A DNA stretch of 61,781 nt, the filler included, from Chloroflexota bacterium (GTDB lineage: Bacteria > Chloroflexota > Chloroflexia > QHBQ01): NCBI GenBank assembly GCA_043754535.1. It is 6 parts of 6 records of this genome, joined end to end, with 100 filler letters (N's around TTAATTAATTAA, not from the genome) between each part and the next. Parts side by side here need not be neighbours in the genome. Positions count along the whole stretch, not along the records: positions 2,583 to 22,618 come from JAYUUN010000002.1; positions 22,719 to 42,564 come from JAYUUN010000003.1; positions 42,665 to 49,172 come from JAYUUN010000004.1; positions 49,273 to 55,555 come from JAYUUN010000006.1; positions 55,656 to 61,781 come from JAYUUN010000012.1; 1 more part is not named here. One strand, written 5' to 3'. Every line of letters starts with the position of its first letter. The stretch's first letter is position 1. Made by a program: the position numbers and the translations under genes. Below the pieces are notes generated by a model. That model worked only from the letters and a program-made list of their open reading frames with translations, made no database searches and had not been told where the DNA came from. This document shows positions 4,003 through 61,435 of this stretch, in pieces.

Positions 4003-4929
4003 ATGACCAGGATATTTGTTGTTGATGACGACCCGGCAATCCGCAGCCTGCTTCAGGTTGCACTGTCGAGTCACGGCTACGAGGTGATCACCGCCAATGA
4101 TGGGGCCGAGGCTCTGCCGCTGATCCTGCGGAGCCAGCCAGACCTGGTGCTGACCGATGTTAGTATGCCAAAGATGGACGGCAACCAGCTTTGTAACGCG
4201 CTGCGCTCGGATGCGCGCACCGCCTTCACCCCAGTGATCTTCCTCAGTGGCAACAACTCTGTGGAAGATAAGGTTGCTAGCTTCGGCATCGGGGCAGACG
4301 ATTATGTGACCAAACCAGTTTCTATGCAAGAGTTGTTTGCTCGCATTGGAGTGCAGCTACGCAAGGTTGCCGAGCGCGGGATTATCAATTCACTGACCCG
4401 CCTGCCTGGTGGTGGACGCGTCGAGGACTTCCTCAAGATGATGCTCAACCGCGAGGGCGTGAGTTTCGCTGTCCTCTACGTCGACCTGGACAACTTCAAG
4501 GCCTACAACGACTACTATGGCTTCGTGCGTGGCAACCAGGTAATCATCCTGCTGGCCGACATACTGCGCGAGATCATGAGCGACGAGGATGGTGAGTACA
4601 ACTTCACCGGCCACATTGGGGGTGATGACTTTGTGTTGGTGACGACCTATGAGCGAGCCGAAGCGATTGGCCGCCAGATCATTAGCGAGTTCGATAGCCG
4701 GGTGCGCGATCTCTACGACCCACCCGACCTGGAGCAGGGTTACATCGTTACCAGGTCGCGGCAGGGCAACCCCAAAGCCTTCAAAATCATCAGCGTCTCC
4801 ATCGGCGTAGTCAACAACAAGTTCCGTCGGGTAACCAGTCTGTTGGATATTGGTGAGATTAGTGCGGAGGTCAAGCGGGCAGCCAAGCGCATCAAGGGCA
4901 GTTCCTTCTACGTAGACAAACGCAGATTA
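4003..4929 (+). CDS. Response regulator receiver + GGDEF(GGDDF)-type domain; ends at TTA 4927-4929 (standard code reads through to 8163)
   Basis: IFVVDDD...LTDVSMPKMDG...DDYVTKP receiver; YVDLDNFKAYNDYYGF...GHIGGDDF; domain ends at SFYVDKRR followed by TTA. Confidence 0.85.
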
Positions 4930-4935
4930 TGCCAC

Positions 4936-4965
4936 TTGTCTACTGCACCCACTTTGTGCTATAAT
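4936..4965 (+). promoter_or_regulatory. Sigma70-type promoter for the glycosyltransferase gene
   Basis: TTGTCT-18 nt-TATAAT with extended TG, 9 nt upstream of ATG 4975. Confidence 0.65.
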
Positions 4966-4974
4966 CCCCCTGTT

Positions 4975-7900
4975 ATGACAGAAAATCACATCCTGATCGT
5001 CAGCGACGACCTGGTAGCGGCTAAGATGGCTGGGCCGGGGGTGCGTAACTGGGAGCTTGCCCGCGCCCTGGTGCGAGCCGGGCAACGCGTCACTCTTGCC
5101 TCCCCTGGCGCGCAGTTTGCGCCGCCCACGCACGACTTCGGTGACCGCCTGACCCTAATCGGTTATGAGCGCGATGGTGATAATGGCCCGCTACGGGCCG
5201 TCGCCAGTAGCGTAGACCTGATCTTCGCGCATGGCTTCACCCTCCACTTCCTTCCTTTCCTGCGGGAGGTGGGCAAGCCACTGGCGGTGGATGTCTACAA
5301 CCCCTTTACCCTGGAAGACCTGCCGCGCAAGGTGGCGGGCGGCTTGGATGCAGTGGTAGTAGACGACTTCCTTGAATACCAGCGCGTGCTGAACGCCCAG
5401 CTACGAGCAGGGGACTTCTTCCTCTGCGCCAGCGAGAAGCAGCGCGACTACTGGCTGGGGATGCTCACCGCCAACCAGCGGGTCAACCCCCACAACTACG
5501 CTGCTGATGAGACGCTGCGCCTGCTGATCGACGTGCTGCCCTTCGGTATCAGCAGCACGCCGCCGCAAGCCGTAGGCCACGCCCTCAAGGGTGTACACCC
5601 TGGCATTGCAGCGGACGATAAGGTGATTGTCTGGGCCGGTGGCATCTGGGACTGGTTCGACCCTGTCACCCTGGTACAGGCTATGCCGTTGGTGTTGCGC
5701 GATGAACCGCGCGCTCGTCTCTTTTTCATGGGGACGCGCCACCCCAATGCTGTTGTGCCACCCTCGCGCAAGGTAGCGGAGGCCACCGCCAGCAGTCGCG
5801 CCCTGGGCCTGCTCGACAGCGCGATCTTCTTCAACGACTGGGTGGCCTACGACCAGCGCGCCGCCTACCTGCTTGATGCTGATCTCGGCACCAGCATCCA
5901 CCTTGACCACCTGGAGACGCGCTTCAGCTTCCGCACCCGCCTGCTCGACTACATCTGGGCGGGGCTGCCGATGGTGATTAGTGGGGGCGACAGCATCAGC
6001 GAGTTCGTTGCCGCTGAGGGGTTGGGCCAAGTGTTGCCGGTCAACGCCAACGCCGGGCAGGTGGCAGCGGCGATCCTGGCTGTGCTGCGAACGCCACGAA
6101 CTGAGTTCGCAGGCCGCTTTGCCGCCGTGCAACCGACAGTGACCTGGGATCGAGTGGCCGCCCCCCTACTCCGCTTTGCCGCCGCACCCTACTTCGCTGC
6201 CGACCGTCTGGCGGCGGGGCAGAGCCTCTACCCCTCCGACGCAGAGCGCGTCCGCACCGACCTTGAGCAGCAGCTTGAGCGCGTAGTTACGGCGAAGGAC
6301 GAGTTTACTGCCCAGGTGATCCGCGATAAGGATGAACTGATCGGTGGGCTAGAACTGGGGGTGGCCGAGCAGCAGGCTTACACCGCCCAGGTGATCCGCG
6401 ACAAGGATGCCTTCCTCACCCAGGTGGTCGCCGACAAGGATGCTTATTTCGAGCGGATCGTCGGTGAACGCGACGCAGAGATCGCCCGCTTGCAGGCGGT
6501 GACCAGTGCGCAGGCCGAGGAGATCGGTTGGCGGGCGGAGGTGATGGCTCGCCAAGAGAACGAACTGCATGGCTACCGCAGCAGTCGCTTTGTGCAGGTG
6601 GCCCGCCTGCCTCGCCGCCTGGCCGACCGCCTGAAGCAGACGCAGGCGATGCGGCAGGCCGAGCGCGAACGCAACGCCCCGATAATAATACCCGCCGAGG
6701 TCGCGCTAGACAAGTATGTGGCCCACGTCAATGAGCTAGAGGATGGCATCGCTAATCTGCTAACCCCGTTCGTCACGGTAGTGATCGTCAACTACAATGG
6801 GCTGCACTTTCTCGAACAGTGCCTCAGTGCGCTGGCGAATGATGTGTTGGATTACCCGGCAGAGAGCTATGAGGTGGTGATGGTAGACAACGCCAGCCGC
6901 GACGGTTCGGTGGCCTACGTGCGCGAACGCTACCCCTGGGTGCAGGTGGTCGCCAACGAGCGCAATCTAGCCTTCGCGGCGGGCAACAACGAGATCATGC
7001 AGGCAGCACCGGGCGAGTTCGTGGTGCTGCTCAACAACGACACGCGGGTAGAGAGCGGCTGGCTACGTGAGTTGCTGGTGGCGGCAGTGCGGCACCCTCA
7101 GGCGGCAGCCCTGACCAGCAAGCTGCTGTTCTACTATCGTCGGCTGCCACTGACCCTCGAAGCGAGTAGCTTCAACCCCGCTGCCCTGGACCAGTCGGGG
7201 GATGGCCGCGACCTGGGGGTGATGGTGCTAGGCATTGAGTACGGGGCAGGGGTGCAGCCGCCTGTAAGCGCAGTGGAGTATGGGAGGGGCTACTATCCCC
7301 TAGAGGGTGCGGGCGCGGCAGTCTACCGCTGGACGGCTGGGGCTGCTACCGCTTACGTCCCCTTCACCGACGCAGCGCAACCTTTGCCGCTGACGCTGCG
7401 CCTCAATCTCAGCCGCCCGCCCTGGGCTGGCCCGCTGCACTTGCGCCTGCGCGTCGGCGACACGGTGTTGGCGGAGTTTGCCGCCCCTGAAGATGGCACG
7501 ATCCACCTCAGCGTGCCACCTGCTTTGCTTGCCAGCGTGCCAGAGGCGATCCAGAACGTGGGCAGCCTCCTGCTCAAGGACGGCAGCGGGCGAGATCGCG
7601 GAGCGGTAGTGGTCGGCAACGCCCAGAGCTATGAGGCAGACGCGGGCCAGTACGAGCGGGAGGAGGAGGTGTTCGCTTTCTGCGGGGCGGGGGTGCTGCT
7701 TCGCACGGCGGCCCTGAAGGAAGTTGGTTATTTTGACGACCACTTCTTCATGTACTATGAGGATACCGATCTGTCCTGGCGGCTACGGCTGGCGGGCTGG
7801 CAGGTGTGGTACGTGCCAAAGGCGGTAGTGCGTCATATCCATGCAGGTAGCAGCAAGGAGTGGTCGCCCTTCTTTACCTACCATGTGCTGCGTAATCGCC

Positions 7901-9752: not shown

Positions 9753-9762
9753 AGAGGTTGCA

Positions 9763-12066
9763 ATGGCACAAGTAAACAGGCGTAGTGGGCGGCTAGTGGA
9801 TGCTGGGGTGCTGATAGTGTATGGGCTGATCACAGTGGTGATGACCTGGCCGCTGACGGTTACACTTGGTCGGCGGGCCAATCTTTCAGGTAGCATTGAC
9901 GAGTATATGTTCGTTTGGGGCTTCTGGTGGATGCGCTACTCTCTGCAAGACTTGCACACATGGCCTTTCCACACAGATTTGCTCTACCACCCTTTCGGTA
10001 CAGGTCTTGCTTTCCACGGCGGCCTCGTGCCACTGATCAGCATCCTTACCATCCCAATCCAGAGCATTTGGAACGCGGACACTGCCTACAATCTAAGCTC
10101 GCTGCTCGCTTTCGGCTTCTCTGCCTTCACCATGTACCTGCTGCTCAAGTACCTCGTTGCCAACCGCTGTGCTGCTTTCCTTGGCGGCGTGGCTTATGCC
10201 TTCTGCACCTACAAGTTCATGCAGCTGGGCCATCTGCACATCCAGAGTACTGAGTTCTTCCCACTCTACATCCTCTTCCTGATCAAAATGCTACGTGAGG
10301 AAGCGTATCAGTGGCGGCACGCTGCATTTGCGGGTCTTTGCCTGGCCTTCATCTTTCTTATAGATTACTACCAGACTGTCTATGCCATGTTCTTCACAGT
10401 CTGCTACCTGATCTACTATCTACTAGGTCGAGAGGGAGGTAGGACGGCAGCTAGTTGGCTGGCAGGACGGCGGTTGATTAACGGTTCAGCTCTGCTAAAG
10501 TTGGTTCGAAGACTGGCAATCCTTGGCCTAGTCTTTACAGTGGTAGGTAGCCCCTTGATCTTTGCTATCGTGCGAGACCTTGGCGCAGGAAACTATGTCA
10601 AATGGGGAGGAGAAAACATCTTCTATACCGACCTTGCTGCCTTCTTTGTACCCTTCACTCCTCTACTGAGCAGCTTCTCTTGGGTGCAGCAGGCTAACAT
10701 CCCGATCATCCACGATGGTGGCGTAGAGTCAGCTGCGTACTTCGGCTGGATGACGATCATCCTGATCAGTATAGGCACCTCGTTGCTGTGGCGCAAGCGT
10801 GCTGACTTCCGCTACTGGTTGGTCTTCCTACTGGTCAGTGTCCTCTTTGCTCTTGGGCCTGAACCACGCTTTCTAGGCTACCGCCTGCCGATCCCTGCCC
10901 CATACACTGTGTGGCAGTCAATACCCTTTCTCAATAATGCACGCTCGCCCTCACGCTTCAACCTGCTGATTACCTTTGCAGTTGGCGTGTTGGTAGCATA
11001 CAGTGTGGGTGCGATCATGAATGCACTTGCTAGACGCTTGAACAAGCGGCGGCTGGTGGCCGCTACTGTTCTTTTCCTTCTGATCGTGACCCCTGTAATG
11101 CTGGCCGAACACTACGTCATACCTCTGTACTTTCCTAAAAACTACCAGATCAACCCTGCTCCATATCTAGAGCAGATAGCGAGCGAACCAGGAGACCGTG
11201 CGGTGTTGACCTTGCCTATCGCAGGTGCGCTCAAGCCACAATTCGGTATCGAGCGGATCATGTATGACCAAACCTTGCACCACCATCCCACCTTTGGTGG
11301 CAGCATCTCACGACCACTAGCTACCTTCTACAACTACTACATTAGTGAAGAGTTTATCGCCATGCTTACCCCTGATCCTAGCAATCTCAGGGTTGCCAGC
11401 GTAGCGATGCAAGCGGTACTGAGCAATACAAAGGCTATGGCCTTCTACCGCTTGGATGCTGCCAGGTTGGCCTACTACACCAACATTGGCTACCTGGTTG
11501 TTCACCCACCAGCTTTGCCTGTCGGTGCCGGGTTGTTCATCAGCCAGACCATGCCTGTCGATCTGGTGTACATGAGCAAGTCCAGCTATGCACAATCGGA
11601 CACAGTAATTTACCGTGTGCGTGAGGCAGAGGTGGCACAGCTAGCGCAGACCGATACGGTGCAGCCAGGCCGCCTAGAAGCCAGTGTCTTCAGGCTGGAG
11701 GGCTGGGAGCAGATTGGCAAGAGCGGCCCCTTCGCCTGGACAACGGCGCAGGAGAGCGAACTGCTGACTACGGTGCAGGAGCCAGCCAACTACAGCGTAA
11801 CCATCCGCGCCGTACCCATGCTGCAAGCGGGCAAGCCACAGACGCTTACCTTCTACCTCAACGACGAGCAGCAAGCGGTGGGTAGCATTACCTTCGACCG
11901 TGATGGCTGGCGCGAGGAGACGATCAGCATCGGGCGGGAACACTGGCGGCTGGGGATGAACAAGCTGCGGCTGCGTACCAGCTACATCACCAGGCCGAAC
12001 AACGGTGATGGGCGGCTGCTGGGGGTGGGGGTGGAGTGGCTGAAGTTCACACCAACGGGCAAGTTA
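9763..12066 (+). CDS. Polytopic membrane protein, YfhO/GT-C-like; ends at TTA 12064-12066 (standard-code end 12114)
   Basis: Many TM helices, FHTDLLYHPFG, ARSPSRF, QTLHHHPTFGG motifs, C-terminal beta domain ending DGRLLGVGVEWLKF; in a GT operon. Confidence 0.75.
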
Positions 12067-13887
12067 GCCGTGCCGCTCTGCCTTCCTTGCGCTGGCCTCA
12101 GCGAAGTAGGCTAGCAGATCGTCCAGCGAGCGGGTGTTGAGGATGTCGGCGGCAGTAGCCCAGCCGCGTCTTGCGTTGGCGACCCCTAGCTCGGCATTGG
12201 GCGCGAAGCCGTCGGGGTGATGTGAGTCGCTGTCAATGGTCAGCTTCACGCCTGCTTGCACCGCCCAGCGCACGTAGCGGCTGTCCAGGTCGAGGCGTTC
12301 GGGCGAACCGTTGATCTCCAGGGCGGTGCCAGTTTCCGCTGCTGCCGCGATCACCTGCTCCATATCGAGGTCGGCTGGTTCGCGGCTGATCAGCAGCCTG
12401 CCGGTCGGGTGGGCGATGATATCCACATGGGGGTTACGCATTGCCCCGATCATGCGGGCTGTCACCTGCTCACGGGGTTGGCGCAGACCGACGTGGACGC
12501 TGGCGACGACCACATCCAGCCCCGCCAACACGGAGTCGGGGAAGTCGAGGCTGCCGTCCAGCAGAATCTCCATCTCCACGCCATGCAGCAGGTGAAAGTC
12601 CAGCCCCTCAGCGGCAAACTGCGCATTGATGCGCCTGATCTCTGTTGCTTGCTGCTCAAGGCGGGCTGCATCCAACCCCCGCGCAATGGTCAGCGAGTGG
12701 GTATGGTCGGTCAGGCAGGCGTAGCGGTAGCCCTGGGCGGCTGCGGCGCGGGCCATCACCTCAATCGGCTTTGCGCCGTCGCTCCACTCGCTGTGCATAT
12801 GCAGGTCGCCGCGCAGGTCGGCGACCTCTACTAGCTTCGGCAGCGTGCCAGCGATAGCTGCCTCGATCTCGCCCTGCCCCTCGCGCAACTCCGGGGCGAT
12901 GTAAGGCAAGCCCAGGTGGGCGTAGACCTCGGCTTCGGTCGCGCAACGGATCGTCTCGCCCGCTGGTTCGCCACCTTGCAGGGGGGTGAGGCCGTACTCG
13001 TTGAGCAAGTAGCCGCGTTCGGTCGCCAGCGTGCGTAGCTGGATGTTGTGCTGCTGGCTGCCAGTGAGGTGCTGCAAGAGGCTACCGTAGTGGTCGGGCG
13101 GCAACACCATCAGGTCAACGCGTAGCCCATTGCGCAGGTGGATAGTCGCCTTCGTGTCGCCGCCTATCACCTGCTCGGCCTGGGGCAGGCTGGTGAAAGC
13201 ATCAACTACCGCCTGGGTATCCGCAGCGGTTGCCAACAGGTCAATATCGCCGATGGTTGGCAGCCGCCTCCGCAGACTGCCCGCCGCCTCCAGCCGCTCG
13301 ACCGCAGGCACCCGCCGCCGCAGGGTGGCGATCAGGTCGCGGGCGATGGGCAGGGCTGTGCCAAGCGGGGTACGATTGTCGGCCTGGCGCAGCAGCGCAA
13401 TCCCTTTGAGGATGGTTTGCTCTGCCTTCAGCCCCTGGCCGGGGACTGTGCGGATGCGGCCCTCGTGCGCGGCGGCCTCCCACTCATCAAGCGTGGTAAT
13501 GCCCAGCTTGTTGTAGATCGCCATTACCGTGCGCGGGCCGATCTCTGGGATGCGGGTGATCGTAATCAGGCCGGGTGGCACTGTGGCGCGCAGGCGGTCA
13601 TAGAAGGCCAGTGCGCCTGTCCTCATCAACTCGTCAATCTTTTTGCTGATCGCCTCACCCACCCCAGGGATTTCTAGCAGCTTGCCCGCCCGCCAGACCT
13701 CGACCAGATCGGCAGGCAGATTGAGGATGGTGTCACCGGCCTTGCGGTAGGCCCGCGACTTGAAGGGCGACTCGCCCCGCAACTCCATCATGTCGGCAAT
13801 CTCAAAGAGGATACGAGCTACGTCGCTGCTGCTCGACCGTGCTTCGCTATCCAGCGGCGGGGTGGCGACGGTTGTCTGCTCAGTCAT
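12064..13887 (-). CDS. polX: DNA polymerase/3'-5' exonuclease PolX (PolX + PHP domain)
   Basis: AGSLRRRLPTIGDIDLL, TGSQQHN, GDLHMHSEWSDG, TDH, DSDSHHP; GGAGGG RBS before ATG 13887. Confidence 0.95.
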   Translation of the reverse strand: MTEQTTVATPPLDSEARSSSSDVARILFEIADMMELRGESPFKSRAYRKAGDTILNLPADLVEVWRAGKLLEIPGVGEAISKKIDELMRTGALAFYDRLRATVPPGLITITRIPEIGPRTVMAIYNKLGITTLDEWEAAAHEGRIRTVPGQGLKAEQTILKGIALLRQADNRTPLGTALPIARDLIATLRRRVPAVERLEAAGSLRRRLPTIGDIDLLATAADTQAVVDAFTSLPQAEQVIGGDTKATIHLRNGLRVDLMVLPPDHYGSLLQHLTGSQQHNIQLRTLATERGYLLNEYGLTPLQGGEPAGETIRCATEAEVYAHLGLPYIAPELREGQGEIEAAIAGTLPKLVEVADLRGDLHMHSEWSDGAKPIEVMARAAAAQGYRYACLTDHTHSLTIARGLDAARLEQQATEIRRINAQFAAEGLDFHLLHGVEMEILLDGSLDFPDSVLAGLDVVVASVHVGLRQPREQVTARMIGAMRNPHVDIIAHPTGRLLISREPADLDMEQVIAAAAETGTALEINGSPERLDLDSRYVRWAVQAGVKLTIDSDSHHPDGFAPNAELGVANARRGWATAADILNTRSLDDLLAYFAEASARKAERHG

Positions 13888-13979
13888 AAACGCGCTCCCT
13901 CCTGTAATTGCTAGCTGTGGTAGCAGAAAGGCGCACCCGCGTGCGCCCAATCTACTGCTTACCGACATAATTGATGTGA

Positions 13980-14570
13980 TAAGCTGGGGTTGACTGGGGT
14001 CAGGTAGTCCTCGTTGAGGATGTCATCGTCGTCATCCTCCTCCTCATCGCGCAACAGATAGAACAGGAGCGCACCGACCAGGGCCAGGACGATCAGCAAT
14101 GGGCTGAAACCACCGCCACCCTTCTTCTCGCCCTGCTTGCCATAGTTACGCAGCCACTCCACGTTGTCCTGTTCGGCGCGAATGTGCTTGGCGAGGGTGT
14201 CGGCTACGTCGTCGCTCACTTCAGGTAGCTTGTCAATGTAGCTCTTGATGCCCATCGCTTCTCCCCGCAGGCTGCCTTCCAGCGACGAGTAGTCGGACTT
14301 CTGGCTGCGCAACTTGCTGCTCAAGCCCACGACTGCCTCAAACGGGCTGCGCTTGTCCAGGCTCTCGGTATCGCCGCCCAAGTCTTCGTAGAGGCTGATC
14401 AGTTCGTCGCGGCGACGAGCAGCCTGATTGCGGAAGGTGGCGTACTGCTTACGTAGCTTCTTGTCCCCAATCTCCTCAGCAGAGCTATCGTAGGCTTCAA
14501 TGGCGATGTTGTTGCCCTTGACCAGTTCCTCGATAGCCTTCAGCGTCTTTTTGTCTGGCTTGTTGCTCAT
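13980..14570 (-). CDS. DUF2383/PA2169-like four-helix-bundle protein with C-terminal TM helix and acidic tail; first TTA at 13980-13982 (standard-code end 13959)
   Basis: Ferritin-like pattern (GNNIAIEAY...GEAMGIKSY), TM segment LLIVLALVGALLFYLL; AGGAG RBS. Confidence 0.65.
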
Positions 14571-14683
14571 TATTGTCTCCTCTATAACTTGGCTTGGTTG
14601 CTAGTGGGAGGCTAGCAATATGCGTGCCAGCCGACGAACAAAAAGAAGGAGGTGGCAACCCACCCCCTCCTGCCCAGCTTCCC

Positions 14684-15649
14684 CTACTTGCCTGGTACGC
14701 CATAGGTGTGTAGGCCGCCGAGGAAGTAGTTGCCGAGGAAGGTGAACACCGTAGCGACCAGGCCGAGGACGAGCAGCCAGGCCGAGCGGCTGCCCTTCCA
14801 GCGTGGCAGGCTGTGCGCGTGCAGGTAGACCCCGTAGACCAGGGCGGTGACGAGGGCGGCGGTCTCCTTCGGATCCCAACTCCAGAAGGCACCCCAGGCA
14901 TCCTTCGCCCACAAGCCGCCGAGGACGAGGACGGCGATCATCAGGGGGAAGCCGATCAGCACCGACTGGTAGCCAATATCGTCGAGGACGATGCGGCTAG
15001 GCAGCCACTTGCGCTTCGGCTCCTTGTCGCGCTGCAAGAGGTACATGATTGCCGCGCCACCCGCGACCACGAAGCCACCATAGGCGGCGATAGCCATTGC
15101 CACGTGGATGGTCAGCATCAGGCCGTTCTGCAAAGCCGGGATCAGGTTCTTCACGTCGCGCTGCTCTGGCATCAGCACGGGGATGATGATCGCATAAAGG
15201 CCGATCAGCGCGCTGAGGGGGGCGACGAACGCGCCTAGCGACTGCTGGCGGAACTGGCGCACGAGAATAAAGCCAATCAGGGCGGTGGAGAAGGTGAGGG
15301 CCGAGGCAAACTCGTACTGGTTGGAGTAGGGGGCGTGGCCGGTGACGATCCAGCGGAAGGTGACAGCCAGGGCCAGGAAGATGATCGCAACCACGTGCAG
15401 TACATTGGCATAGGTGCCAGCAGGGTGGCGCGGTTGCATGGTCGCCTCGGCCTTGAGGCTGACTGACGTGTTGCCGCCGCCGCTGGTGGCAAGCTGAGCG
15501 GTAGTGCGGCTTGCCAGCACCCCTTGCTTCAACAGGTAGTAGGCATAGAAGCCACCAGCCAGCAGCAGGGTCATCGTCCCCGCGACCAGCATATAGAGGT
15601 TCAGGCGATCCAGGCCATCCAGTTTTGCTGCAAAGACAATTGTGTTCAC
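14684..15649 (-). CDS. ccsA: Cytochrome c biogenesis protein CcsA/ResC (system II)
   Basis: WAKDAWGAFWSWDPKET WWD motif, GHAPYSNQYE, HVAMAI, GLHTYG. Confidence 0.95.
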   Translation of the reverse strand: MNTIVFAAKLDGLDRLNLYMLVAGTMTLLLAGGFYAYYLLKQGVLASRTTAQLATSGGGNTSVSLKAEATMQPRHPAGTYANVLHVVAIIFLALAVTFRWIVTGHAPYSNQYEFASALTFSTALIGFILVRQFRQQSLGAFVAPLSALIGLYAIIIPVLMPEQRDVKNLIPALQNGLMLTIHVAMAIAAYGGFVVAGGAAIMYLLQRDKEPKRKWLPSRIVLDDIGYQSVLIGFPLMIAVLVLGGLWAKDAWGAFWSWDPKETAALVTALVYGVYLHAHSLPRWKGSRSAWLLVLGLVATVFTFLGNYFLGGLHTYGVPGK

Positions 15650-15680
15650 TTGCTTTCTCCTCTATTTACCCCAAACCAAC

Positions 15681-17318
15681 TTAAGCTGTTGCCAACTCGC
15701 GCTCATGGCGCAGATCGTACTCCTCGTCGAGGGCCGTCGAGCGGTGCAGCATGGTGCCACCCGCCGCCTGCAAGTCTTCACCAACGCGTAGCATCTTGCC
15801 CGCCAGTCCGGCTCTACGGCTGGCCTGTCCCTTGAGCAGCACCACGCTGCCACCTTCACGGGGTTCGACCCGCGCCCAGAGGCGGCGCACCGGGAAGTAG
15901 AAGACGAGCATGATGCCGAAGATCATCAGGGTGCTAGCAACCACTACCAGGTTCATACCGGGATCGCGCCCAACCTGGAGGCCGCTGAACAGCCGTTCAC
16001 GCTGGAAGGTGACGGTCAGCCCCTGCTGGCTGCTACTCTGCCGCTGGCCGAGGGTAGCCTCCCACAGCGGCTGGTCGCTGCGGATGGCGTAAGCGCGCAG
16101 GTACATCTGGCCCGGCTTCACCTGCTCGTCACCCTGCCCAGCAGAGGAGACCACATCAACCTGCACCTCACCATTGCCGAGGCTGAACGAACCCATGGGC
16201 CGGGTGGGGCCATACATCTTGCTGCGGTAGGCTAGCGGCACGCTACCTTTGTAGACTGTCACCCCAGTCGCGTCCTTCACCTCGATGTCGGCAGCATTGC
16301 CAAAGAACGCCTGATGGAACTTGACCCCATCAATGTCCAGCGGGTCATTGACGCGGATCGTTTTGCGGGCGATCTCCTGGCCGTTACGGGTCACGGTCAG
16401 GTCACTGCGGTAGTCTGCTGGGCGACCGTCTGGATAGTTCTCCGAGAAAAAGCCATTGTTGTAGACGACCAGGCCCGTCCCCTGGCCCACTTCACGGCTA
16501 CTGCCTTGCGGCACGGCGAAGTCCACTAGCTTGAAGCTGTCACCCATCAGCGTTCCCCAGATCGCGCCAATGAAGATGAGGACGATACCGATGTGGTTGA
16601 GGTAGGTGCCAAGCGGCAGCAGGTGGAAGCGGTCGGCGTAGAAGCTGCGCGAGCCGTCCTCATCAGCCTGACTTTCCTGGTAGCGCACGCGCAGGCCGCC
16701 CGCAAGGGCAGCCGGTAGTTTGGCCGCTACCTCGTTGGGGGTGGCGGCGAACTGATAGCTGGCGGCATACTCACCGTGGGCGTAGAAGCGGGGGCCAACC
16801 TTCATGCGAGTGGCGGTCGCCTGCTTCCAGGTGGCGGGCAGGCGGTTGAGGGTGCAGACTACTATGTTAAGGGTCAGCACCGCCAGCAGCCCCTTGAACC
16901 AGAGCGTGCTAAAGAGGTTGAACAGGCCGAGGTCGAACATGATCCCGGTCAGGTCGCCAAAGCGCGGCTGCATCCCGGTCGTCCACATCTTGCGGCTGGC
17001 AGGGTCACCGAGCAACTCTGGCGGCATCTGGATGATCACGGTGCCGAGCAGAGTGGCGAAGGCGATCAGGGCGATCAGGGACATCGCCAGCTTGACCGAG
17101 CAGAAGAACCGCCAAACCGCCTCGCCAAAGCTGTTGACGCGCACACGGGCGGAGGTTTCGATCACCGGCACGGTCTCACGCTCTGCCTTCTTTGGCATGA
17201 AGGGAGCAGAGGGAGGGACGATCACCCTCACTTCGTCGTTGACCAGGGCAGTCTCGCCCCGCGCAACCCGACGGCGGCGTTCCTCCCGTTCCTTATTGCT
17301 GTTGATTTGGCTAGCCAT
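15681..17318 (-). CDS. resB: Cytochrome c biogenesis protein ResB/CcsB
   Basis: FFCSVKLAM...GTVIIQ, CTLNR, YLNHIG, IRVNDPL, GRDPGMNLV. Confidence 0.92.
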   Translation of the reverse strand: MASQINSNKEREERRRRVARGETALVNDEVRVIVPPSAPFMPKKAERETVPVIETSARVRVNSFGEAVWRFFCSVKLAMSLIALIAFATLLGTVIIQMPPELLGDPASRKMWTTGMQPRFGDLTGIMFDLGLFNLFSTLWFKGLLAVLTLNIVVCTLNRLPATWKQATATRMKVGPRFYAHGEYAASYQFAATPNEVAAKLPAALAGGLRVRYQESQADEDGSRSFYADRFHLLPLGTYLNHIGIVLIFIGAIWGTLMGDSFKLVDFAVPQGSSREVGQGTGLVVYNNGFFSENYPDGRPADYRSDLTVTRNGQEIARKTIRVNDPLDIDGVKFHQAFFGNAADIEVKDATGVTVYKGSVPLAYRSKMYGPTRPMGSFSLGNGEVQVDVVSSAGQGDEQVKPGQMYLRAYAIRSDQPLWEATLGQRQSSSQQGLTVTFQRERLFSGLQVGRDPGMNLVVVASTLMIFGIMLVFYFPVRRLWARVEPREGGSVVLLKGQASRRAGLAGKMLRVGEDLQAAGGTMLHRSTALDEEYDLRHERELATA

Positions 17319-17911
17319 AACTTTGCAAACCCATATTTGATAGTCAAATCTTTGAGCAGGGCTGGATTGAGTGGGCCAAGCTGGATGTGGACGATCTTGC
17401 CCGTGCTATCGAGCAGGAAGCTGCTGGGGGTGGCGGCCAGCTTGTAGGCTTTGGTTACGGCCCCATCGAGGTCGAGCAGGATAGGGAAGCTGTAGAGGGC
17501 AGTCTTGCCATCGGGCTGCACGTAGTTCTTGACCGTCGCCGCATCCTCGCGGATGTCTACACCAATCACGGCAAAGCCAGCGGCCTTGTACTGGGCGTAG
17601 GTGTCCTCAAGGTCGGGCATCTCGGCGCGGCAATCGGCGCACCAGCTAGCCCAGAAGTTGACGAGGGTCAGCTTGTTAGCCTTTGCGGTCTGCATCAAAT
17701 CTACAGTGTTGCCGCGCCAGTCGCTGAGGGTGAAGCCGGGCGGCTGGCTGCCAATGGCGATCTCTACCTGCTGACCGTTCTTGAGGTCGCCCACAGCCTT
17801 ACCATCACCATCTTGCAAGCTGCCGACGGCCCCGCTAGTGTTGTCGCAGGCTGCCAGTACCATCAAGGCCAGGGTGACGACCAACATCAGGTTGATGCGC
17901 TGCTTGATCAA
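17318..17911 (-). CDS. resA: ResA/TlpA-family thiol-disulfide oxidoreductase lipoprotein; ends at TTA 17318-17320 (standard-code end 17228)
   Basis: Lipobox LAAC, LVNFWASWCADCRAEMP, TPSSFLLD; first gene of the resABC-like operon. Confidence 0.88.
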
Positions 17912-18043
17912 TAGAAGTTCCCTCCACTTTCGGGCCTACCCACCATCTTCAAGTATAGCCCCCGGCCTAAACAGTGTCAAGCAGGGGGCATATAAGTTCC
18001 ATATAAGGGTCAGGGCTGACTGCTAGCGAAGGCACAACCACAG

Positions 18044-23723: not shown

Positions 23724-24089
23724 TAAAGAACGTGGTAGCCCGGCGACCAGCAGTAGCAGTGCGCTAACCGCCAGCAGCAGCGCAGCCCCAGCCACCGCCA
23801 GCGTCACCCCCGGCTCAAGTCCCTGCTTGCGGGTGGCAATGGCGTTGAAGGCACAGACGGTACCGAGGATCGCCAGCAAGCCGAAGCAGGGTTGCAAGTA
23901 GGCAGCGAATGCCCCCAGGCTGCTCAGCACCCCCGCACAGGCGACCGCGAGGGGGGTATTGGGGTCGGGCAGGTCGGTGTTGTCTATCCGCCAGCGGGCG
24001 GCACGTTGGCGCAACTCCGCCGCCTCGGCCTGCGTCAGTTGCTCGTCGTCGTCCAGTTCATCGAACTCGTCAATCTGGTTGCGTCTCAT
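23724..24089 (-). CDS. Small membrane protein (DUF4190-like); ends at TTA 23724-23726 (standard-code end 23589)
   Basis: Acidic N-terminus plus three TM helices; TTA immediately after the last helix. Confidence 0.6.
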
Positions 24090-30577: not shown

Positions 30578-30722
30578 GCAACCTTACCGCCAACCTTACA
30601 ACTATCTGCGCCTGCCTTATGCGATTTGGCAAGGGGGTACCAATTTGCCAGTACCTTTTAGCCAAAAGTACCAGCCTTAATCTGCCGAAGCTGGCGTATA
30701 ATAGATAGTGGGTTAGGAGGAA

Positions 30723-31379: not shown

Positions 31380-33374
31380 TAAGCGGGCCGCCGCGATCAG
31401 CTTGCCCCCAATGATCGCTGCCAGGCCCTGCGCCCGCTTCATCCCCTCGTCATCCGTTACGTAGTTGCGTCCATAGCTGAACTCGACGGTGACGACGGCA
31501 TTGGCGTAGCGGTAGACGATCTGGGTAGTACCTAGCGGGTAGCTACCACCTTCGCGCGCACTTTGGCGCACTGCTGCCACCTCACCTACGCCCACGAACT
31601 CCAGCCAACCTGCACTAGCCAGGGCCGCCTGCTGCTCGGTCATCGCCACCGCTGCCCGCGCTGCATCCTGGTAGATCGCCACCGTCTCAGTGAAGTGCCG
31701 GAAGCCGTCTGGCTTCTGGTAGTGTGCAGTGTAGAAGTAGCTACCGCGCTGCTCGCTGACCAAGCCGTAGCCAGGGAGCAGGTCGTCGCGGTTGGCGGCA
31801 TAGCGGCTGGCAGGGACGGCCACACGCAGTTCATCAGGCAATATTGGGGTTGGCACTGCCATAGTTGGCCCAGCAGTTGGGGCGGCAGTAGCAGACTGGG
31901 TGGCGGGTGGTGGGGTCGGCGTGGGCGACCCATCGCAGGCAGCCAGCATGGCAAGCAACAGCAAGCTAGCTGCCAACTTTGACCTACGGCCACGCCAGCC
32001 GACCCAGCCGAGGGCGGCCAGGGCCGGGGGGAAGACCACCCAGGCCAGCCAGTTCTCGAAGTACGTCACCGCCACCTTCTCCTTTGCGAACGAGTAGAAG
32101 CTAAAGGCAAGCAGGCCACCAGCCAGGAAACCGAGCAGCACCGCCAGCCAGCCGCCTTGTGGCCGCAGCGCGACGAAGGGCAGCAGCCAGGCCACATACC
32201 AGGGCTGCCACCAGACCAACGCGAAGGCCAGCAAACAGGCGAAGAAGCTGGCTGCCCCACCAATCAGGGCATCGTCGAGGTCGGTAGCCTGCCACAAGCG
32301 GCTTGCCTGCCAGAGTGCAAAGCCAACCGCCAGCAGCAGCCCGCTGGCAATGAAGAAGCCACGAGCCTGGGCCAGCCCGAAGCCGAGGCTGACCGCAGAC
32401 TGCACCCCCAACGCAGCAAACGAGTTAGTCAACAGTTGGCCGCGCTGCAAGGGAGCGAAGCTGGCGAACCCCCGCCAGTAGGGAGCGTAGCAAAGTAGCG
32501 CAATCGCCAGGCTAAACCCTGTACCAGCCAAGAGACCGCTAAACATCTTTGGGCCAAACTTGCGCCAGCTGTAGACCAGCGCAGCTGGCAGCAGCAGCAG
32601 CGGCACGAACTTGACTAGTACCGCCAGGGTGAGTAGCGGCATCGCCAGCCCTAGCCTGCCGCGTAGCAGCGCAAGATAGGCGGCCAGCATGAACACCACC
32701 ATGGTCAGGTCATTGTGGCCGTTGCCGATGCTCTCAAAGAGGACGAGTGGGCAGGCGGCAAACAGGTAGCCTGCCCGCAGCGGGGCAACCCCCAATTGCC
32801 GCGCCAATGCCGCCACCAGCCCCCAGCAGCCCGCCCACGAAATAGCAGCCAGTAGCTTGAGGCCGAGCAGGTTGGCAAATAGGCTGTCACCCCCCAGTCG
32901 GCTAGCCACTGCTGCCAGCAACTCCCAGACTGGGCCGTAGGGCGAGGGGTCGCGCTGCCAGGCGACATAGGCATAGAAGGGGTCGCTGGCGAACTGCTGT
33001 GGCAGGTCGGTGAAAGGGTTGCCACCATAGTGCGTGCTGATACGGGCGCGAAAGAGCGCGTCGTAGATGTCGCTAGAGGTGAGCGGGTAGAAGAACAGCA
33101 TCATCGCCGCCGACAGTAGCGGCCCAGCCATGAGTAGCCAGCGCAGACAACCGCTCGGCTGCTGTGGTAGGGTGTAGGCGGTAACAGCATAGGCCAGCAA
33201 ACTGGCGACGTAGAGGCCAAGATAGCGCAGGTGGATCAGCGCGCTATCTAGCCCGCCTACCCGATCATAGAGGCTGACTAGCGGGAAGTTGAGGACTACC
33301 AGCAGGCAGCAGAGCGGGCCGAGGGCGACTGCAAGCAGAGTTGCGCCGTAGCGGAGGGTAGCATTACGTTCCAT
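31380..33374 (-). CDS. GT-C/GT87-like (MptA/B-type) membrane glycosyltransferase with C-terminal lipoprotein-like extension; ends at TTA 31380-31382 (standard-code end 31035)
   Basis: SSDIYD, NPF, SPYGPVW, GNGHND, LVKF motifs. Confidence 0.78.
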
Positions 33375-34656: not shown

Positions 34657-34986
34657 ATGGGGATTATGGAAAACGCGATTGATCAGGCATTCGCCCGCCT
34701 GAGCCAGCAGGAGAAGGCGGAGATGCTGACTACGGTGGCTACTCGCCTGTTGGAGAAGATGAGCGCAGAAGACCGCTACGCCCTCGCGGACAAGATCGTG
34801 GATACCCTGATTGGTGACCTCGCACCCGACGAGCGAAAGGCAGCGGTGAGCGAGTTCCTCCCTCGCATGATCGCCCGCGCTGTCGAGCAGAGCGGGCTGG
34901 GGATGGACGAACTGATGAGCCTTGCCTTCCAGGGGGTAGGGATGCTTGAGAGCCAGGCAGACAATACTCACTCAACTAGCAACTAG
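34657..34986 (+). CDS. Hypothetical helical protein
   Basis: GGAGG RBS, upstream TGGTATAAT, normal codon usage. Confidence 0.65.
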   Translation: MGIMENAIDQAFARLSQQEKAEMLTTVATRLLEKMSAEDRYALADKIVDTLIGDLAPDERKAAVSEFLPRMIARAVEQSGLGMDELMSLAFQGVGMLESQADNTHSTSN

Positions 34987-35145
34987 CATCATCTTGCTTG
35001 GTGGGAGTACGCTCTCCACTATTAGATAGGCACGGTCGCTCCGCATCATCGCGGGCTGGTAGTGGGGACTCCGATGTGCTTGCTTCTTTCGTCTTAGCTC
35101 CAGTAAACGTCTGGCTGCTGTTGATCGAGATCGACAGGTAACATT

Positions 35146-35856: not shown

Positions 35857-36803
35857 ACGAACCCCCTCCTGGCCTGCCACTCCAGAGGGGCTGGGAGGGG
35901 CAGCGCGCAATGCTGGTTACCCTGACGGGACCGACGGGGGTGGGCAAGAGCGGACTGGCTCTGCGGTTGGCGGCTGCGCTGGGCGGTGAGATCGTCAATG
36001 CCGACTCGCGCACCGTCTACCGGGGTCTGGATGTGGGAACAGCCAAGCCCTCCCCCGCTGAACTAGCCGCCGTGCCACACCACCTGATCGACGTGGTGAA
36101 CCCTGACGAGAGCTACAGTCTCTCCCTCTACCAGCAAAAGGCGTATTCTATTATTGACGACTGCCTGCGGCGGGGGCGGCTGCCGCTGCTGGTTGGCGGC
36201 ACCTTGCAGTATGTAAGCGCGGTAGTGGAGGGCTGGACGATACCGACCACGCCACCTGATGCGGCCCTGCGCGCAAGGTTGGCAGCGAGCGACCCCGCCG
36301 CCCTCTATGCCGAGTTGCAGCAGGTTGACCCCAGCTCTGCTGCCAAGATTGACGAGCGCAACCAGCGGCGGGTGATCCGCGCCCTCGAAGTTTGGCACAG
36401 TAGCGGCCAGCAGTTCAGCAGCCAGCAGCGTAAGGTTGCGCCCGCCTATCGCCAACTACGCCTCGCCCTCACCTGCGAGCGCAGGGAACTTTACCGCCGC
36501 ATTGATGCGCGGGTAGATGCAATGATCGATGGGGGCTTGGTGGCAGAGGTGCAAGGGCTGGCGGCCCGCTACGGCCTCCACCTGCCTGCCCTCTCTGCTA
36601 TTGGCTACCGCCAGGTTGGAGCCTACCTGCGTGGTGAAAGCACGCTGACGCAGGCAAGCCAGCAGATCAAGTTTGATACGCACGCCTTTGTCCGCCACCA
36701 GTATGCCTGGTTTCGGCGCGACCAGGAGCTACGCTGGATCGACAACACCACTGCCGACCCTTACGACGCGGCTTTGGCGATCATTCGCGAGTTCATCACC
36801 TAA
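35853..36803 (+). CDS. miaA: tRNA dimethylallyltransferase
   Basis: GPTGVGKS, NADSRTVYRGLDVGTAKP, PHHLID, VGGT, AIGYRQ, RHQYAWF. Confidence 0.96.
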   Translation: MNEPPPGLPLQRGWEGQRAMLVTLTGPTGVGKSGLALRLAAALGGEIVNADSRTVYRGLDVGTAKPSPAELAAVPHHLIDVVNPDESYSLSLYQQKAYSIIDDCLRRGRLPLLVGGTLQYVSAVVEGWTIPTTPPDAALRARLAASDPAALYAELQQVDPSSAAKIDERNQRRVIRALEVWHSSGQQFSSQQRKVAPAYRQLRLALTCERRELYRRIDARVDAMIDGGLVAEVQGLAARYGLHLPALSAIGYRQVGAYLRGESTLTQASQQIKFDTHAFVRHQYAWFRRDQELRWIDNTTADPYDAALAIIREFIT

Positions 36804-37928
36804 ACCCGCCTCAGCCAGCAGGTCAGTGTAGAGCGACTCGTGGGCATCTAGCATTGCGCTGAGGCTGAAGCGGCGGACGGCGGCGGCATGGCAGGCAGCA
36901 CGTTCTAGCTGGCCCACCCTGCCGACAGCGGCGATCAGCCCAGCCTCGTCGTCGGCGGGCAGCAGGTAGCCACTCTCACCATCCACCACGATCTCCGGCA
37001 AGGCTCCGCGTGCGTAAGCCAGCACTGGCGTGCCTGCCGCCATCGCCTCAGCGGCGACCAGGCCGAACGGCTCGTCCCAGGCGACAGGAAAGAGCAGGGC
37101 GGCAGCCCGGCCCATCTCGTCGTACACCTGCTCGCGGCTGACCGCCCCACGATGCTCGATCTGCGCGGCGAGGTGGGGGGCAACCTGGCTGCGGTAGTAC
37201 TGCTGGTCGTAGATCGCCCCCAGCATCAGCAGCCGCCTACCACTGGCCTGGGCGACGCGAATGGCGGTAGCCGCTCCCTTCTCTGGGGCTATGCGCCCAA
37301 CAAAGAGCAGGTGGTCATCCTCGGCCTGCGCCCGGTAGGGGATGCCCTCGGCCACCCCATTGTAGATCACCCGCTCGATGGCGACCCCCACTGCAGTGTA
37401 GGTGGCAGCGCAGCGTTGGGAGACGGTGACCAGGGCTGGGCGGCTGGCAGGGGCGAAGCGGGCGGTGGTCGCTTGCAGGCTGGCGAGGCTGCGATTGATC
37501 GCTGGGTCTACGGCTGGCAGATGCAGGGTGTGGATTGGGCGAGCGCGGCTGTGGGCGAAGGAGGCCAGCGTATAAGCGGGGTAGTCGAAGGCGTGGCAGT
37601 GAACCAGGTCGAAGGGCGGCTGGCTGTCGTGTATCTCCAGGAAGGCGCGGCGAAAAGCGTCGCTGCTAAGGTAGAAAGCCTCGGCCAGCGTCCCCTGTTG
37701 CTCCCCCTGTGCAGTGAAGGTAGCCGGTTGCAGGGCAAAGGGGTCAACCTCTACCTCCACCAACCGCACTCCCGGCACGTTGGAGCCGGGTGCAACAAAG
37801 AGGTGCAGGTCGTAGCCGCGCTCGGTCAAGCCTCGTGCCAGGTCGTAGACCACCACCTGCGCCCCGCCGCTGAAGGGTGGGCCGATTGGATAGACGAGGG
37901 GAGCAACCAGGGCTATCTTTGGCTTCAT
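36801..37928 (-). CDS. Glycosyltransferase family 4; ends at TTA 36801-36803 (standard-code end 36729)
   Basis: PPFSGGAQ, FVGRIAPEKG, WDEPFGLVAAEAMAAGTPV. Confidence 0.9.
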
Positions 37929-37976
37929 AAACCTATTATAGCCCATTGATGCGCTTGCTGGCTAGCTCCGCAAGAC

Positions 37977-60028: not shown

Positions 60029-60067
60029 CGGTTTCTCCTTGCAGTTTGGGTTCGGTTCGTTGTTACA

Positions 60068-60096
60068 ATTATATCATATTGTTTTGCTTTTGTCAA
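60068..60096 (-). promoter_or_regulatory. Consensus sigma70 promoter
   Basis: TTGACA-17 nt-TATAAT with extended TG on the minus strand. Confidence 0.85.
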
Positions 60097-60244
60097 TATC
60101 ACAATAGCAATTTAGCTGGGTCAGATGGAGAGCAACAGCCGGTTAAGGGCGGGAACCATAGCACCGATGCGGCTTTAGCCGCAGCCGACAACAATCAACT
60201 CCCTGCCGCTGAAGTTGGCAGGGGGTTGGCGATAGCAAGCCGGG

Positions 60245-61435
60245 TAAGTTCGCGCCCCACGAACTGGGCAGGTGATGGGGCATGATCAGGTGGGTGAAAT
60301 TAGGCCGGTTGGGGCTGCGAAACACGCCGGGATCGGTTGGGCCGTTCAGGTCAACTGTTATCTCGACCAGCCCCAGCTTGCGGAGGGCGGCCAACATGTC
60401 CAGCAGATAGTAGATGTCGAAGCCAACCCGCAGGTTCGCCCCGGCGACTGTCAATGTCGGCAGCAGTGGCGGTGTCACATCCTCGCGGGGCGGCCAAGCG
60501 GCGGCGGTTGCGGTTCCGGTGGCACTGTCCAGCACCAGTCGCACGGTGTTGTCGTTCTTGCCCATACCCGCCGTGACCGCTTGCAGGGCCGCAGCCGCAG
60601 CCGCCACGTTCAGCCGCACGCAGGTTGACCCCGGCTGTTGCGGGATGAACTCTGTGTTGGGGCGGCAGCCCTCGGCCAGATAGACGGTGAGTCGGGTGGT
60701 AATGTCTGCGGCTGTCCACTCAAAGATTGCCCAGCTACTACGTGGGTGCAGCGACAGCGTGACCGGGACTTCAGCGGCACGGTTGGTTGGCAGCAAGGCT
60801 TTGAGAGTAGTCAGAGCCGCCGTCGGGAACAGCAACCGGGTTGCCGCCACATCGAGGTTGCCGGACTGATAGGCCAGCCGGTCGCTGGCGATGCGGAAGC
60901 CATCGCTGGTCTCTACCAGCACCTCGCCCGGCTGGTCAAACTCAAACACAACACGGCTGTACCGCTCAAGGTAGCTGTCTGTCCCAGCGACTGCGCTGCT
61001 GAACAGCGTGGCTGTAAGCGTGTCAGTGAGGTTGCTGGCAGCAAAGGTCGCCAGCACGCGATCAAGTTGTGGCTGCGCGATGATGGGGAACTCCCCCGCA
61101 TCCATACCAGCCAGCATCTCCGTTTCGCTGCTCGCCAACTGCACATCCAGCCCCGTGCTAGTCAGGGTCAAGGTCTGCCCACGTTGACCAGCTACAGCGT
61201 TGGTGATCGCCTTGTGCGGCACGGCGACCGCCCCAGCCGCTGCTACCTGTGCAGGCATGGTGACGACGATGCCCACCTCAATGTCGGTGCCGCTGATCGT
61301 GAGCTTGTCCCCCTCGCCCTCAAGTAGCACATGGCCGAGGATCGGTAGGCCCAAGGCCCGATTACCCCTTGCTACCGCCCGCCTTACCCGCTGAAGCTGG
61401 CCGCTCAGTTTGCTGGCCGCTATCTTAATTTGCAT
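60245..61435 (-). CDS. dnaN: Divergent DNA polymerase III beta clamp (element-encoded); ends at TTA 60245-60247 (standard-code end 60143)
   Basis: LPILGHVLL...SGTDIEVG, EFPII, TSDGFRIA, GFDIYYLLD, HLIMP. Confidence 0.82.

Follow-up and report, generated by a model that had tools for sequence, protein, structure and literature searches.

Is the leucine codon UUA (TTA in the DNA) a signal for the termination of translation in a bacterium? The question is raised by a stretch of DNA of 61,781 nucleotides, filler included, which consists of six contigs of one metagenome-assembled genome (MAG), G000, from an uncultured member of the Chloroflexia. We refer to the whole stretch as the window. A preliminary description of the window proposed that TTA acts there as a fourth stop codon. 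Codon composition, homology, substitution patterns and the comparison of orthologues all lend strong support to the core of this proposal: UUA has been removed from the interior of coding sequences, it occurs at the positions where homologues end, and it swaps with TGA and TAA among relatives. UUA is thus very probably a fourth termination signal beside UAA, UAG and UGA in this Chloroflexia family.

The G000 assembly comprises 3.87 Mb in 132 contigs with a GC content of 61.4%, a completeness of 88.9% and a contamination estimate of 0.72%. The family under study is represented by five MAGs: G000 and its congener G001 (DNA identity about 91-93%, referred to as this genus), and G002, G003 and G004, which form a sister genus within the family and share 64-75% identity with G000. 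Relatives were compared from samples of 100-294 kb each, with one gene caller throughout. For G000 we used a set of 1,272 stop-to-stop open reading frames (ORFs) of at least 400 codons (780,344 codons), and a set of 2,842 non-overlapping confident genes predicted by the gene caller trained on this genome.

In-frame TTA across the genome

TTA was the rarest sense codon in the long ORFs, at 0.54 per 1000, compared with 10.7 for CTA, 9.3 for CTT and 14.3 for TTG; out of frame, TTA occurred at 3.9 per 1000. When the ORFs were divided into deciles from the 5' to the 3' end, the TTA counts were 235, 25, 14, 1, 13, 5, 3, 2, 12 and 113, a pattern that is well past chance. The TTAs of the first decile belong to the non-coding stretch upstream of the true start, and the middle portions of the long ORFs contained 31 TTAs in 468,847 codons. 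The control codons CTA, ATA, AAA, TGT, TCA, TCT and CTT were spread evenly across the deciles. AGA showed an approximately 2-fold increase in the last decile, which is expected if about 9% of these ORFs carry non-coding tails.

The sequence downstream of the 3' TTAs did not resemble coding sequence. At the first TTA in the 3' half of each ORF, the in-frame coding score, averaged over 30 codons on either side, changed from +0.215 before to -0.167 after the codon (82 scored of 117), and no change was seen when the same score was computed for AGA, TGT, ATA, AAA and TCA (for AGA, 0.216 and 0.212). A standard stop followed at a median of 21 codons after TTA, compared with 140-170 codons after control codons, and the distances from TTA looked geometric, as in non-coding sequence. 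Counts of rare codons beside the ends of coding segments (TTA 39, AGA 48 and TCA 50 of 2,842) are uninformative, because low-scoring codons themselves define those ends; the valid control is the score before and after the codon.

The three standard stop codons all remain in use, as had been proposed: TAG ended 1,083, TGA 859 and TAA 669 of the 2,842 confident genes. TTA ended 231 of them, or 185 under a stricter rule. UUA ends about 6-8% of the genes in the family of G000, roughly one in fifteen. The base following TTA was most often G (0.49) or T (0.28), and the same two bases were recorded after TGA (G 0.40, T 0.23); after TAG the base was C at a frequency of 0.47. TAG was the commonest stop codon (38% of the 2,842 genes, with TGA at 30%) in a genome of 61% GC. 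TGA is usually the commonest stop at such a GC content, so this order of stop use seems unusual; it may relate to the altered release factor described below.

Apparent internal TTAs were examined separately. Coding segments with a total of 1,080,300 codons contained 193 TTAs, mostly close to segment ends, and 37 of them lay at least 40 codons from both ends. For most of these 37, an in-frame start with a Shine-Dalgarno-like motif lay no more than 50 codons downstream. The 20 that scored best as coding on both flanks were translated with read-through and scanned against Pfam. Fifteen gave Pfam matches and five gave none, and in none of the 20 did a Pfam match span the TTA. Eight of the 15 matched loci had different Pfam families on the two sides, the flanking pairs including thiolase and hexapeptide transferase, deformylase and Exo_endo_phos, APH and RNase PH, AsnC and LysE, and thiamine-binding and biotin carboxylase. 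Profiles finished 4-10 residues before the TTA and others began just after it; upstream of the TTA they ran to positions 122 of 123 (Thiolase_C), 93 of 94 (CobW_C), 347 of 348 (Iso_dh) and 214 of 220 (PmbA_TldD). Judged from these profiles, the internal TTAs appear to be junctions of neighbouring genes that NCBI translation table 11 (table 11) fuses.

Terminal TTAs in the window and their orthologues

The preliminary description had named eight genes of the window that end at TTA, at 4927 and 12064 on the plus strand and at 13980, 17318, 23724, 31380, 36801 and 60245 on the minus strand. All eight TTAs are in frame and the ORFs score well (Table 1). A ninth terminal TTA, absent from that first list, belongs to a gene for a cytochrome P450. 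One more in-frame TTA, the tenth, at 34621-34623 on the minus strand, was dropped, as it falls in a weak shadow ORF opposite a better ORF on the plus strand. Of the gene ends that the gene caller placed in the window, 40 were confident (TAG 14, TGA 10, TAA 8, TTA 8). The true tally is nine TTA ends among 41, because the caller fused the gene ending at 4927 with the next one into a single ORF. The observation that genes of the window lack internal in-frame TTA was also borne out: its confident coding segments contained no other in-frame TTA, and the remaining ones precede start codons.

Table 1. Genes of the window that end at an in-frame TTA (tail: codons from the TTA to the stop used under table 11)
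Gene product	Coordinates	Strand	Terminal TTA	Residue of TTA	Pfam domain (residues)	Tail
REC-GGDEF response regulator	4003..4929	+	4927-4929	311	Response_reg 6-117, GGDEF 132-222	
Polytopic membrane protein, YfhO-like	9763..12066	+	12064-12066		no match	15
DUF2383 protein	13980..14570	-	13982-13980			
Thioredoxin-fold protein (ResA/AhpC-TSA-like)	17318..17887	-	17320-17318	206	AhpC-TSA 61-183	29
Small membrane protein	23724..24089	-	23726-23724		no match	44
Cytochrome P450	27230..28672	-	27232-27230	494	p450 46-457	
GT-C-like membrane protein	31380..33374	-	31382-31380		no match	114
GT4 glycosyltransferase	36801..37946	-	36803-36801	387	Glycos_transf_1 214-347	
Divergent DnaN-like sliding clamp	60245..61435	-	60247-60245	403	DNA_pol3_beta_3, to 393	33

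Pfam domains stopped upstream of the TTA in 9 of 9 window ORFs, and the sequence translated past each TTA looked like junk. The tails that table 11 adds, a further point of the preliminary description that we could reproduce, were 6 to 114 codons long, and in one case the result was a fusion of the REC-GGDEF protein to a glycosyltransferase. Under table 11 this gene, whose start was inferred as the first ATG, becomes a 1,388-codon ORF that runs to 8163, with the next Pfam matches beginning at residue 542. In the congener G001 the TTA is kept and a frame-breaking indel lies between it and the ATG of the next gene; therefore, the two genes are in different frames there. The tail of the GT-C-like gene runs into a convergent gene at 30717-31352. 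The DUF2383 tail contains a second TTA four codons past the terminal one, at 13970-13968.

In the DnaN-like gene the DNA_pol3_beta_3 match finished at profile position 120 of 121. DnaN homologues in nine of nine relatives stopped 2-3 residues past a conserved IMPMHL, 4-5 residues short of the aligned TTA, and the window protein continues for 7 residues past IMPMHL to its TTA. Its identity to the DnaN of all relatives searched, the congener included, was only 24-30%. The gene is a divergent second clamp-like paralogue and not the housekeeping dnaN.

Two of the terminal TTAs coincide with stop codons on the opposite strand. The TTA at 12064-12066, read on the minus strand, is the TAA stop of a convergent gene (placed by the caller at 12066), and the minus-strand TTA at 36803-36801 is the TAA stop of a convergent plus-strand gene (placed at 36801). 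Such convergent pairs accounted for 7 of the 185 TTA ends genome-wide.

The same pattern was found in relatives of G000. Deep in-frame TTA was present at 0.034 per 1000 codons in G000 (61% GC) and 0.055 in G001 (62% GC), with 6.5% and 6.2% of genes ending at TTA; in the sister genus it was present at 0.015 per 1000 in G002 (59% GC) and 0.013 in G004 (60% GC), with 6.5% and 10.9% TTA ends. Four outgroups of the same order, G006 (70.7% GC), G009 (57%), G010 (64%) and G033 (58%), contained 0.29, 1.5, 3.0 and 2.9 deep in-frame TTAs per 1000 and lacked the 3' pile-up. GC content is not the reason for the depletion, because outgroups of 57-71% GC show 0.29-3.0 per 1000. The trait is common to one family (five MAGs, two genera) and absent from the same-order outgroups. 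A sample of a further genome, G016 (18.7 kb), gave TTA decile counts of 4, 0, 1, 2, 0, 0, 0, 0, 0 and 3 from only 10 ORFs.

We then compared individual gene ends between relatives. Seven of the nine window sites could be aligned with G001, and six of these keep TTA (the genes for the REC-GGDEF, DUF2383, ResA-like, small membrane, GT-C-like and GT4 proteins). At the seventh, the end of the P450 gene, G000 reads ACC CGC TTA GCC ATG and G001 reads ACC CAC TGA GCC ATG. In the sister genus the ResA-like gene stops one residue earlier, at TAA in G003 or TGA in G004, and the DUF2383 gene likewise stops one residue earlier, at TGA in G002 or TAA in G004. The preliminary description had suggested looking for standard stops at these positions in orthologues; TAA or TGA was found at the TTA or one residue from it in the P450, ResA-like and DUF2383 genes. 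The GT4 gene ends at TTA in G001, G002 and G004 as well. The end of the YfhO-like orthologue was not alignable.

The substitutions on the two sides of the TTA differed in kind. In seven genes aligned between G000 and G001, the 60 codons upstream of the TTA had 13, 3 and 42 mismatches at the first, second and third codon positions and no indel nucleotides in 1,260, compared with 13, 10 and 13 mismatches and 5 indel nucleotides in 333 for the tails past the TTA. Divergence was 10.8% in the tails and 4.6% upstream (Fisher p = 7e-5), and the share of mismatches at third positions also differed (p = 6e-4). By these alignments, the tails past TTA evolve in the manner of non-coding DNA. The median tail length to the next standard stop was 6.5-7 codons in the sister genus (n = 22 and 11) and 13-14 codons in this genus. 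At loci L083 and L084 of G004, and also at L081, short repeated intergenic elements, which translate as ...GPGRTTVRPY..., carry several stray in-frame TTAs.

Release factors and transfer RNAs

A search of G000 with the RF-1 domain profile (PF00472) found two genes only, those of release factors RF1 and RF2, so the further release-factor paralogues for which the preliminary description had advised a check are absent from this assembly. The RF2 gene of G000 is cut by a contig end. In five of five family genomes the recognition region of RF2 is HRMVRISPYDSQHRRQTSF (HRM-VRISPY-DSQH-RRQ-TSF), and in 28 outgroup sequences it is HRLVR[IL]SPFD...RR[H]TSF. In the numbering of the solved chain 9fy1_8 the family changes are L200M, F206Y and H213Q; the Met was found in none of the 28 outgroup sequences. 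A DNA pattern for P-Y-D-x3-R-R-Q-T-S-F matched 5 of 401 genomes of the class, which are exactly the family, and was absent from the other 396 genomes, which cover 16 further families. Unpublished genomes contributed 3 of the 28 outgroup rows of the RF2 alignment (G007, G012, G015), 2 of the 9 DnaN comparisons (G007, G015) and 4 of the 401 genomes screened with the DNA pattern (G007, G012, G015, G034), and the conclusions are independent of them.

The altered residues lie in the codon-recognition loop of RF2, and UUA differs from UAA and UGA in the second base alone. In structures of RF2 on the ribosome the conserved His stacks on the second base of the stop codon. According to the available text of one study, S205 of the SPF motif contacts the second base and RF2 depends on the group at its 6-position (PMC5776981). 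An RF2 with Tyr in SPF, Gln for the His three residues before TSF, and Met in HRLVR would read UUA by accepting U at the second codon position, and would still read UGA and UAA. Retention of UGA reading is expected because the +1 frameshift arrangement of prfB is kept: in seven of seven prfB loci (four of the family and three outgroups) the upstream frame ends in ...RL-TGA and the main ORF resumes in the +1 frame, and the frameshift site CTT TGA C was seen in six of the seven. If UUA is a stop codon, the position and distribution of these changes suggest that RF2 is probably its reader. The earlier suggestion of an altered RF1 or RF2 is therefore retained for RF2, as a correlation with a family-only motif, and not for RF1, in which the PxT motif and the His of RIHTS are kept.

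It appears rather unlikely that a genuine UUA stop codon has another reader, be it RF1, altered 16S rRNA or a factor encoded in the 11% of the genome that is missing from the assembly, with the RF2 substitutions as coincidental markers of the lineage. The family RF1 does differ from that of the outgroups beside PxT (TETKG or TEANG versus TESQG or TESGG), and the RF2 correlation amounts to one phylogenetic event whose Tyr and Gln each occur singly elsewhere. RF1 was nevertheless set aside as the cause, since the differing positions are variable among the outgroups too, and the combined RF2 change falls within the codon-recognition loop. TTA is, moreover, a single second-base step from TGA, a codon read by RF2 only, and from TAA. 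The P450 end shows a direct exchange of TTA and TGA, and the base following TTA is distributed as after TGA and unlike that after TAG. In organelles with a UUA stop the same loop of RF2 is altered, according to the available text of PMC12574857.

The preliminary description had further proposed that the lineage lost tRNA-Leu(UAA) and for that reason terminates at UUA. ARAGORN found 46 transfer RNAs (tRNAs) and a transfer-messenger RNA (tmRNA) in G000, with Leu anticodons CAA, CAG, GAG and TAG; tRNA-Leu(UAA) was not found in this genome (89% complete). Nor was it found in G001 (87% complete) with a covariance model for Leu tRNAs, which detected CAG, CAA and GAG only. With the same model it was present in G002, G003 and G004 and in five of five outgroups. 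The tRNA was thus not found in the two incomplete MAGs of this genus, but its loss cannot have caused the reassignment and can at most have come afterwards, because the sister genus shares the trait yet keeps the tRNA.

The sister-genus tRNA-Leu(UAA) has A73 and a compensatory change from T-A to C-G in the anticodon stem. Its copies in G002 (contig C96), G003 (C600) and G004 (C292; loci L121, L126 and L127) have a C31-A39 mismatch that leaves a 4-bp anticodon stem; six outgroup copies are paired at this position. The gene looks maintained, because the mismatch is conserved and the stem change is compensatory. In the sister genus either UUA is ambiguous or the tRNA mainly serves UUG. The gene adjoins homologues of G000 C57:31268-32128 or C57:33657-34748, and between these two positions G000 has a TPR-like ORF and no tRNA. 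This synteny is weak support for a true loss, because the neighbourhood is rearranged among the genomes. A tRNA with a 4-bp anticodon stem has been considered as a route to wider decoding (superwobble), according to the available text of PMC13092985. Reading of UUA by tRNA-Leu(CAA) through superwobble was rejected for G000, whose gene has five regular Watson-Crick pairs in the anticodon stem. An ARAGORN call of 'tRNA-Pyl(cta)' at G000 C31:4032-4124 is probably a false positive, with mismatches in both the T stem and the acceptor stem; the tRNA-SeC called at C84:51665-51759 has a regular appearance.

After the change of meaning, tRNA-Leu(UAA) probably became dispensable and was lost in this genus; the sister genus keeps it, and UUA termination there may leak. 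More tentatively, the two genera may show a reassignment caught in mid-course, a scenario that we consider possible and no stronger than that. An RF2 with a remodelled loop of the SPY...RRQ type would have captured UUA with the tRNA still present, UUA would have a dual meaning in the sister genus, and in this genus the change would be complete with the loss of the tRNA. A leaky UUA stop in the sister genus is consistent with the shorter tails there.

Counter-evidence, other readings and known systems

Several points count against UUA as a stop codon read by RF2. Support for UUA as a stop is computational throughout. The association with RF2 is correlative, as it comes from one clade and represents one evolutionary event, and parts of the motif occur outside this clade: Tyr in SPF by itself in the outgroups G013 and G024, and the exchange of His for Gln by itself in a MAG of the Thermodesulfobacteriota. 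The sister genus keeps tRNA-Leu(UAA) despite having the same TTA pattern and RF2 motif, and the incomplete MAGs of this genus also lack other tRNAs (Ala-TGC, Thr-GGT and Pro-CGG in G000, Leu-TAG in G001). Genes ending at TTA had a slightly lower codon score (0.311 versus 0.327-0.337, p = 2e-5), and a standard stop followed within three codons at 33 of 185 TTA ends compared with 243 of 2,489 standard ends (p = 0.001). These two differences would be expected of a UUA stop that is weak or leaky. Finally, a handful of true sense TTAs is possible, because the Pfam scan covered 20 of the 37 deep TTAs and 5 of these 20 gave no match. In the Thermodesulfobacteriota MAG just mentioned (G041, locus L167), RF2 has RRQTSF with a normal SPF; TTA is rare everywhere in the 94 kb sampled, at 72% GC.

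UUA could instead be unassigned, with neither a tRNA nor a release factor, so that stalled ribosomes are freed by rescue through tmRNA, an ArfB-like hydrolase or drop-off. This is improbable. It would fit the failure to find tRNA-Leu(UAA) in G000 or G001, the tmRNA of G000, and the slightly weaker codon bias and more frequent back-up stops of TTA-ending genes. It likewise recalls the unassigned AGA and AUA codons of Micrococcus luteus and CGG of Mycoplasma capricolum, where, as in this genus, the codon is purged and the cognate tRNA is missing. However, gene ends as well should be free of an unassigned codon, whereas TTA occupies 185-231 ends here and is conserved at them, so the match fails. 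Tagging by tmRNA would condemn 6-8% of the proteome to degradation, conserved enzymes included, and no homologue of ArfB or PrfH was found in the 89%-complete G000, where the PF00472 profile matched RF1 and RF2 only; termination through a rescue pathway, offered as one option in the preliminary description, is accordingly unlikely. In addition, TTA ends are positively maintained across two genera, as in the GT4 gene, and swap with TGA and TAA. The sister genus has the tRNA, so that UUA is not unassigned there, yet its pattern is the same, and the clade-specific RF2 changes would be left without explanation.

It is still less probable that TTA remains a very rare leucine codon whose tails are translated, and that it accumulates at 3' ends because a slowly read codon is tolerated close to the C-terminus. 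In Streptomyces, TTA occurs within a limited number of regulatory genes, where it is decoded by the dedicated tRNA bldA. TTA is likewise strongly depleted there in a GC-rich genome, but it lies inside genes, and here it lies at gene ends; we found no demonstrable internal TTA, and no tRNA-Leu(UAA) in this genus. The functional-looking tRNA-Leu(UAA) of the sister genus and the fairly high GC content of 61% would agree with a rare leucine codon. Against it, outgroups of similar GC content use TTA evenly at 1.5-3.0 per 1000, the coding signal drops sharply past TTA, and the tails lack third-position periodicity and contain non-triplet indels, including the frame break in G001. Homologues stop at the TTA, and internal TTAs fall between genes of unrelated families.

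That the pattern arises from assembly or base-calling errors or from a chimeric bin is barely credible even for a MAG fragmented into 132 contigs, since it recurs in four other MAGs of two genera and across all contigs at 0.72% contamination, and since the terminal TTAs at 12064, 13980 and 17318, which miscalled bases might have produced, are unchanged in contigs of four of four independent runs from four other studies that span 11611-18500 with 10-18 differences each. In all four runs the second TTA of the DUF2383 tail varies (13970 A>G) and the terminal TTA is intact. A look for RNA runs that cover 11500-18500 turned up none.

A fourth stop codon of this kind has its closest counterpart in the mitochondria of labyrinthuleans such as Thraustochytrium (NCBI table 23), where, as in this family, UUA changed from Leu to stop and the three standard stops were kept. 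The organellar genome is small and its factor, mtRF2a, is nucleus-encoded (PMC12574857, available text), whereas here the trait is found in a free-living bacterium of 3.9 Mb. In the table 23 case an altered RF2-type factor is the proposed reader, in which the invariant 'Ser204' is replaced by Ala, Gly or Cys, as stated in the same text (PMC12574857). By the 9fy1_8 numbering 'Ser204' looks like the Ser of SPF, and the paper's own numbering may differ. The family RF2, unlike mtRF2a of table 23, keeps the Ser at the SPF position and instead has Tyr for Phe, Gln for His and Met for Leu.

The mitochondrial code of Scenedesmus is table 22. The other known cases, as far as the available text of PMC12574857 describes them, are all organellar. 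In plastids of pedinophyte origin in dinoflagellates UUA and UCA are stops, UUA is confined to the 3' ends of coding sequences, adjacent genes had earlier been misread as fusions, and the codon-binding region of pRF2 is altered; the authors called this, in 2025, the first sense-to-stop change outside mitochondria (PMC12574857). These plastids have RNA editing, new stops in more than half of their genes and a change at another RF2 residue; here the new stop is UUA, in 6-8% of genes. In the mitochondria of Marsupiomonadales and Pseudoscourfieldia UUR is a stop, and for Marsupiomonadales the same source gives no tRNA gene cognate to UUA/UUG (PMC12574857). Further organellar sense-to-stop changes that it lists include UCA in Scenedesmus and AGA/AGG in vertebrate mitochondria, with altered or extra release factors (PMC12574857). 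The reader of these UUR, UCA and AGR stops is mtRF1a or a dedicated paralogue, and all of them are organellar; the family described here is bacterial.

According to the available text of PMC12574857, mitochondria were the sole known setting of sense-to-stop reassignment until a single plastid lineage was added in 2025. In agreement with the preliminary description, which knew of no bacterial example, we found no bacterium for which UUA, or another sense codon, is described as a stop in the full-text literature (subscription journals lay outside the coverage). The published bacterial code changes that we found were from stop to sense or from one sense to another, and the present case would be the first sense-to-stop code change in a free-living bacterium. 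The Codetta and KACI screens cannot infer stop codons, as described in the available text of 10.64898/2026.04.02.715157. Large code screens would miss a UUA stop, because stop inference is outside their scope.

If UUA is a stop codon here, the family would have a bacterial genetic code with four stops for which there is no NCBI table, and a natural RF2 variant of widened specificity that would be useful for studies of stop recognition and for engineered codes. The two genera, which differ in tRNA retention, would then provide a testable series for the change in codon meaning. Should the reassignment indeed have been caught in mid-course, they would form a natural series of ambiguous intermediates of stop gain, in which two or three RF2 substitutions suffice for a fourth stop. 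Annotation of the family's genomes with table 11 gives proteins spurious C-terminal extensions and makes separate genes appear to overlap or to be fused. At a locus outside the window (L170, G000 C1, about 34442-36004) an in-frame TTA is residue 261 at the junction of a GT-C and a GH35 part. An ATG with a Shine-Dalgarno-like motif follows 7 codons past the TTA and the GH35 match begins at residue 278 from profile position 2, so that this locus probably holds two genes and not one.

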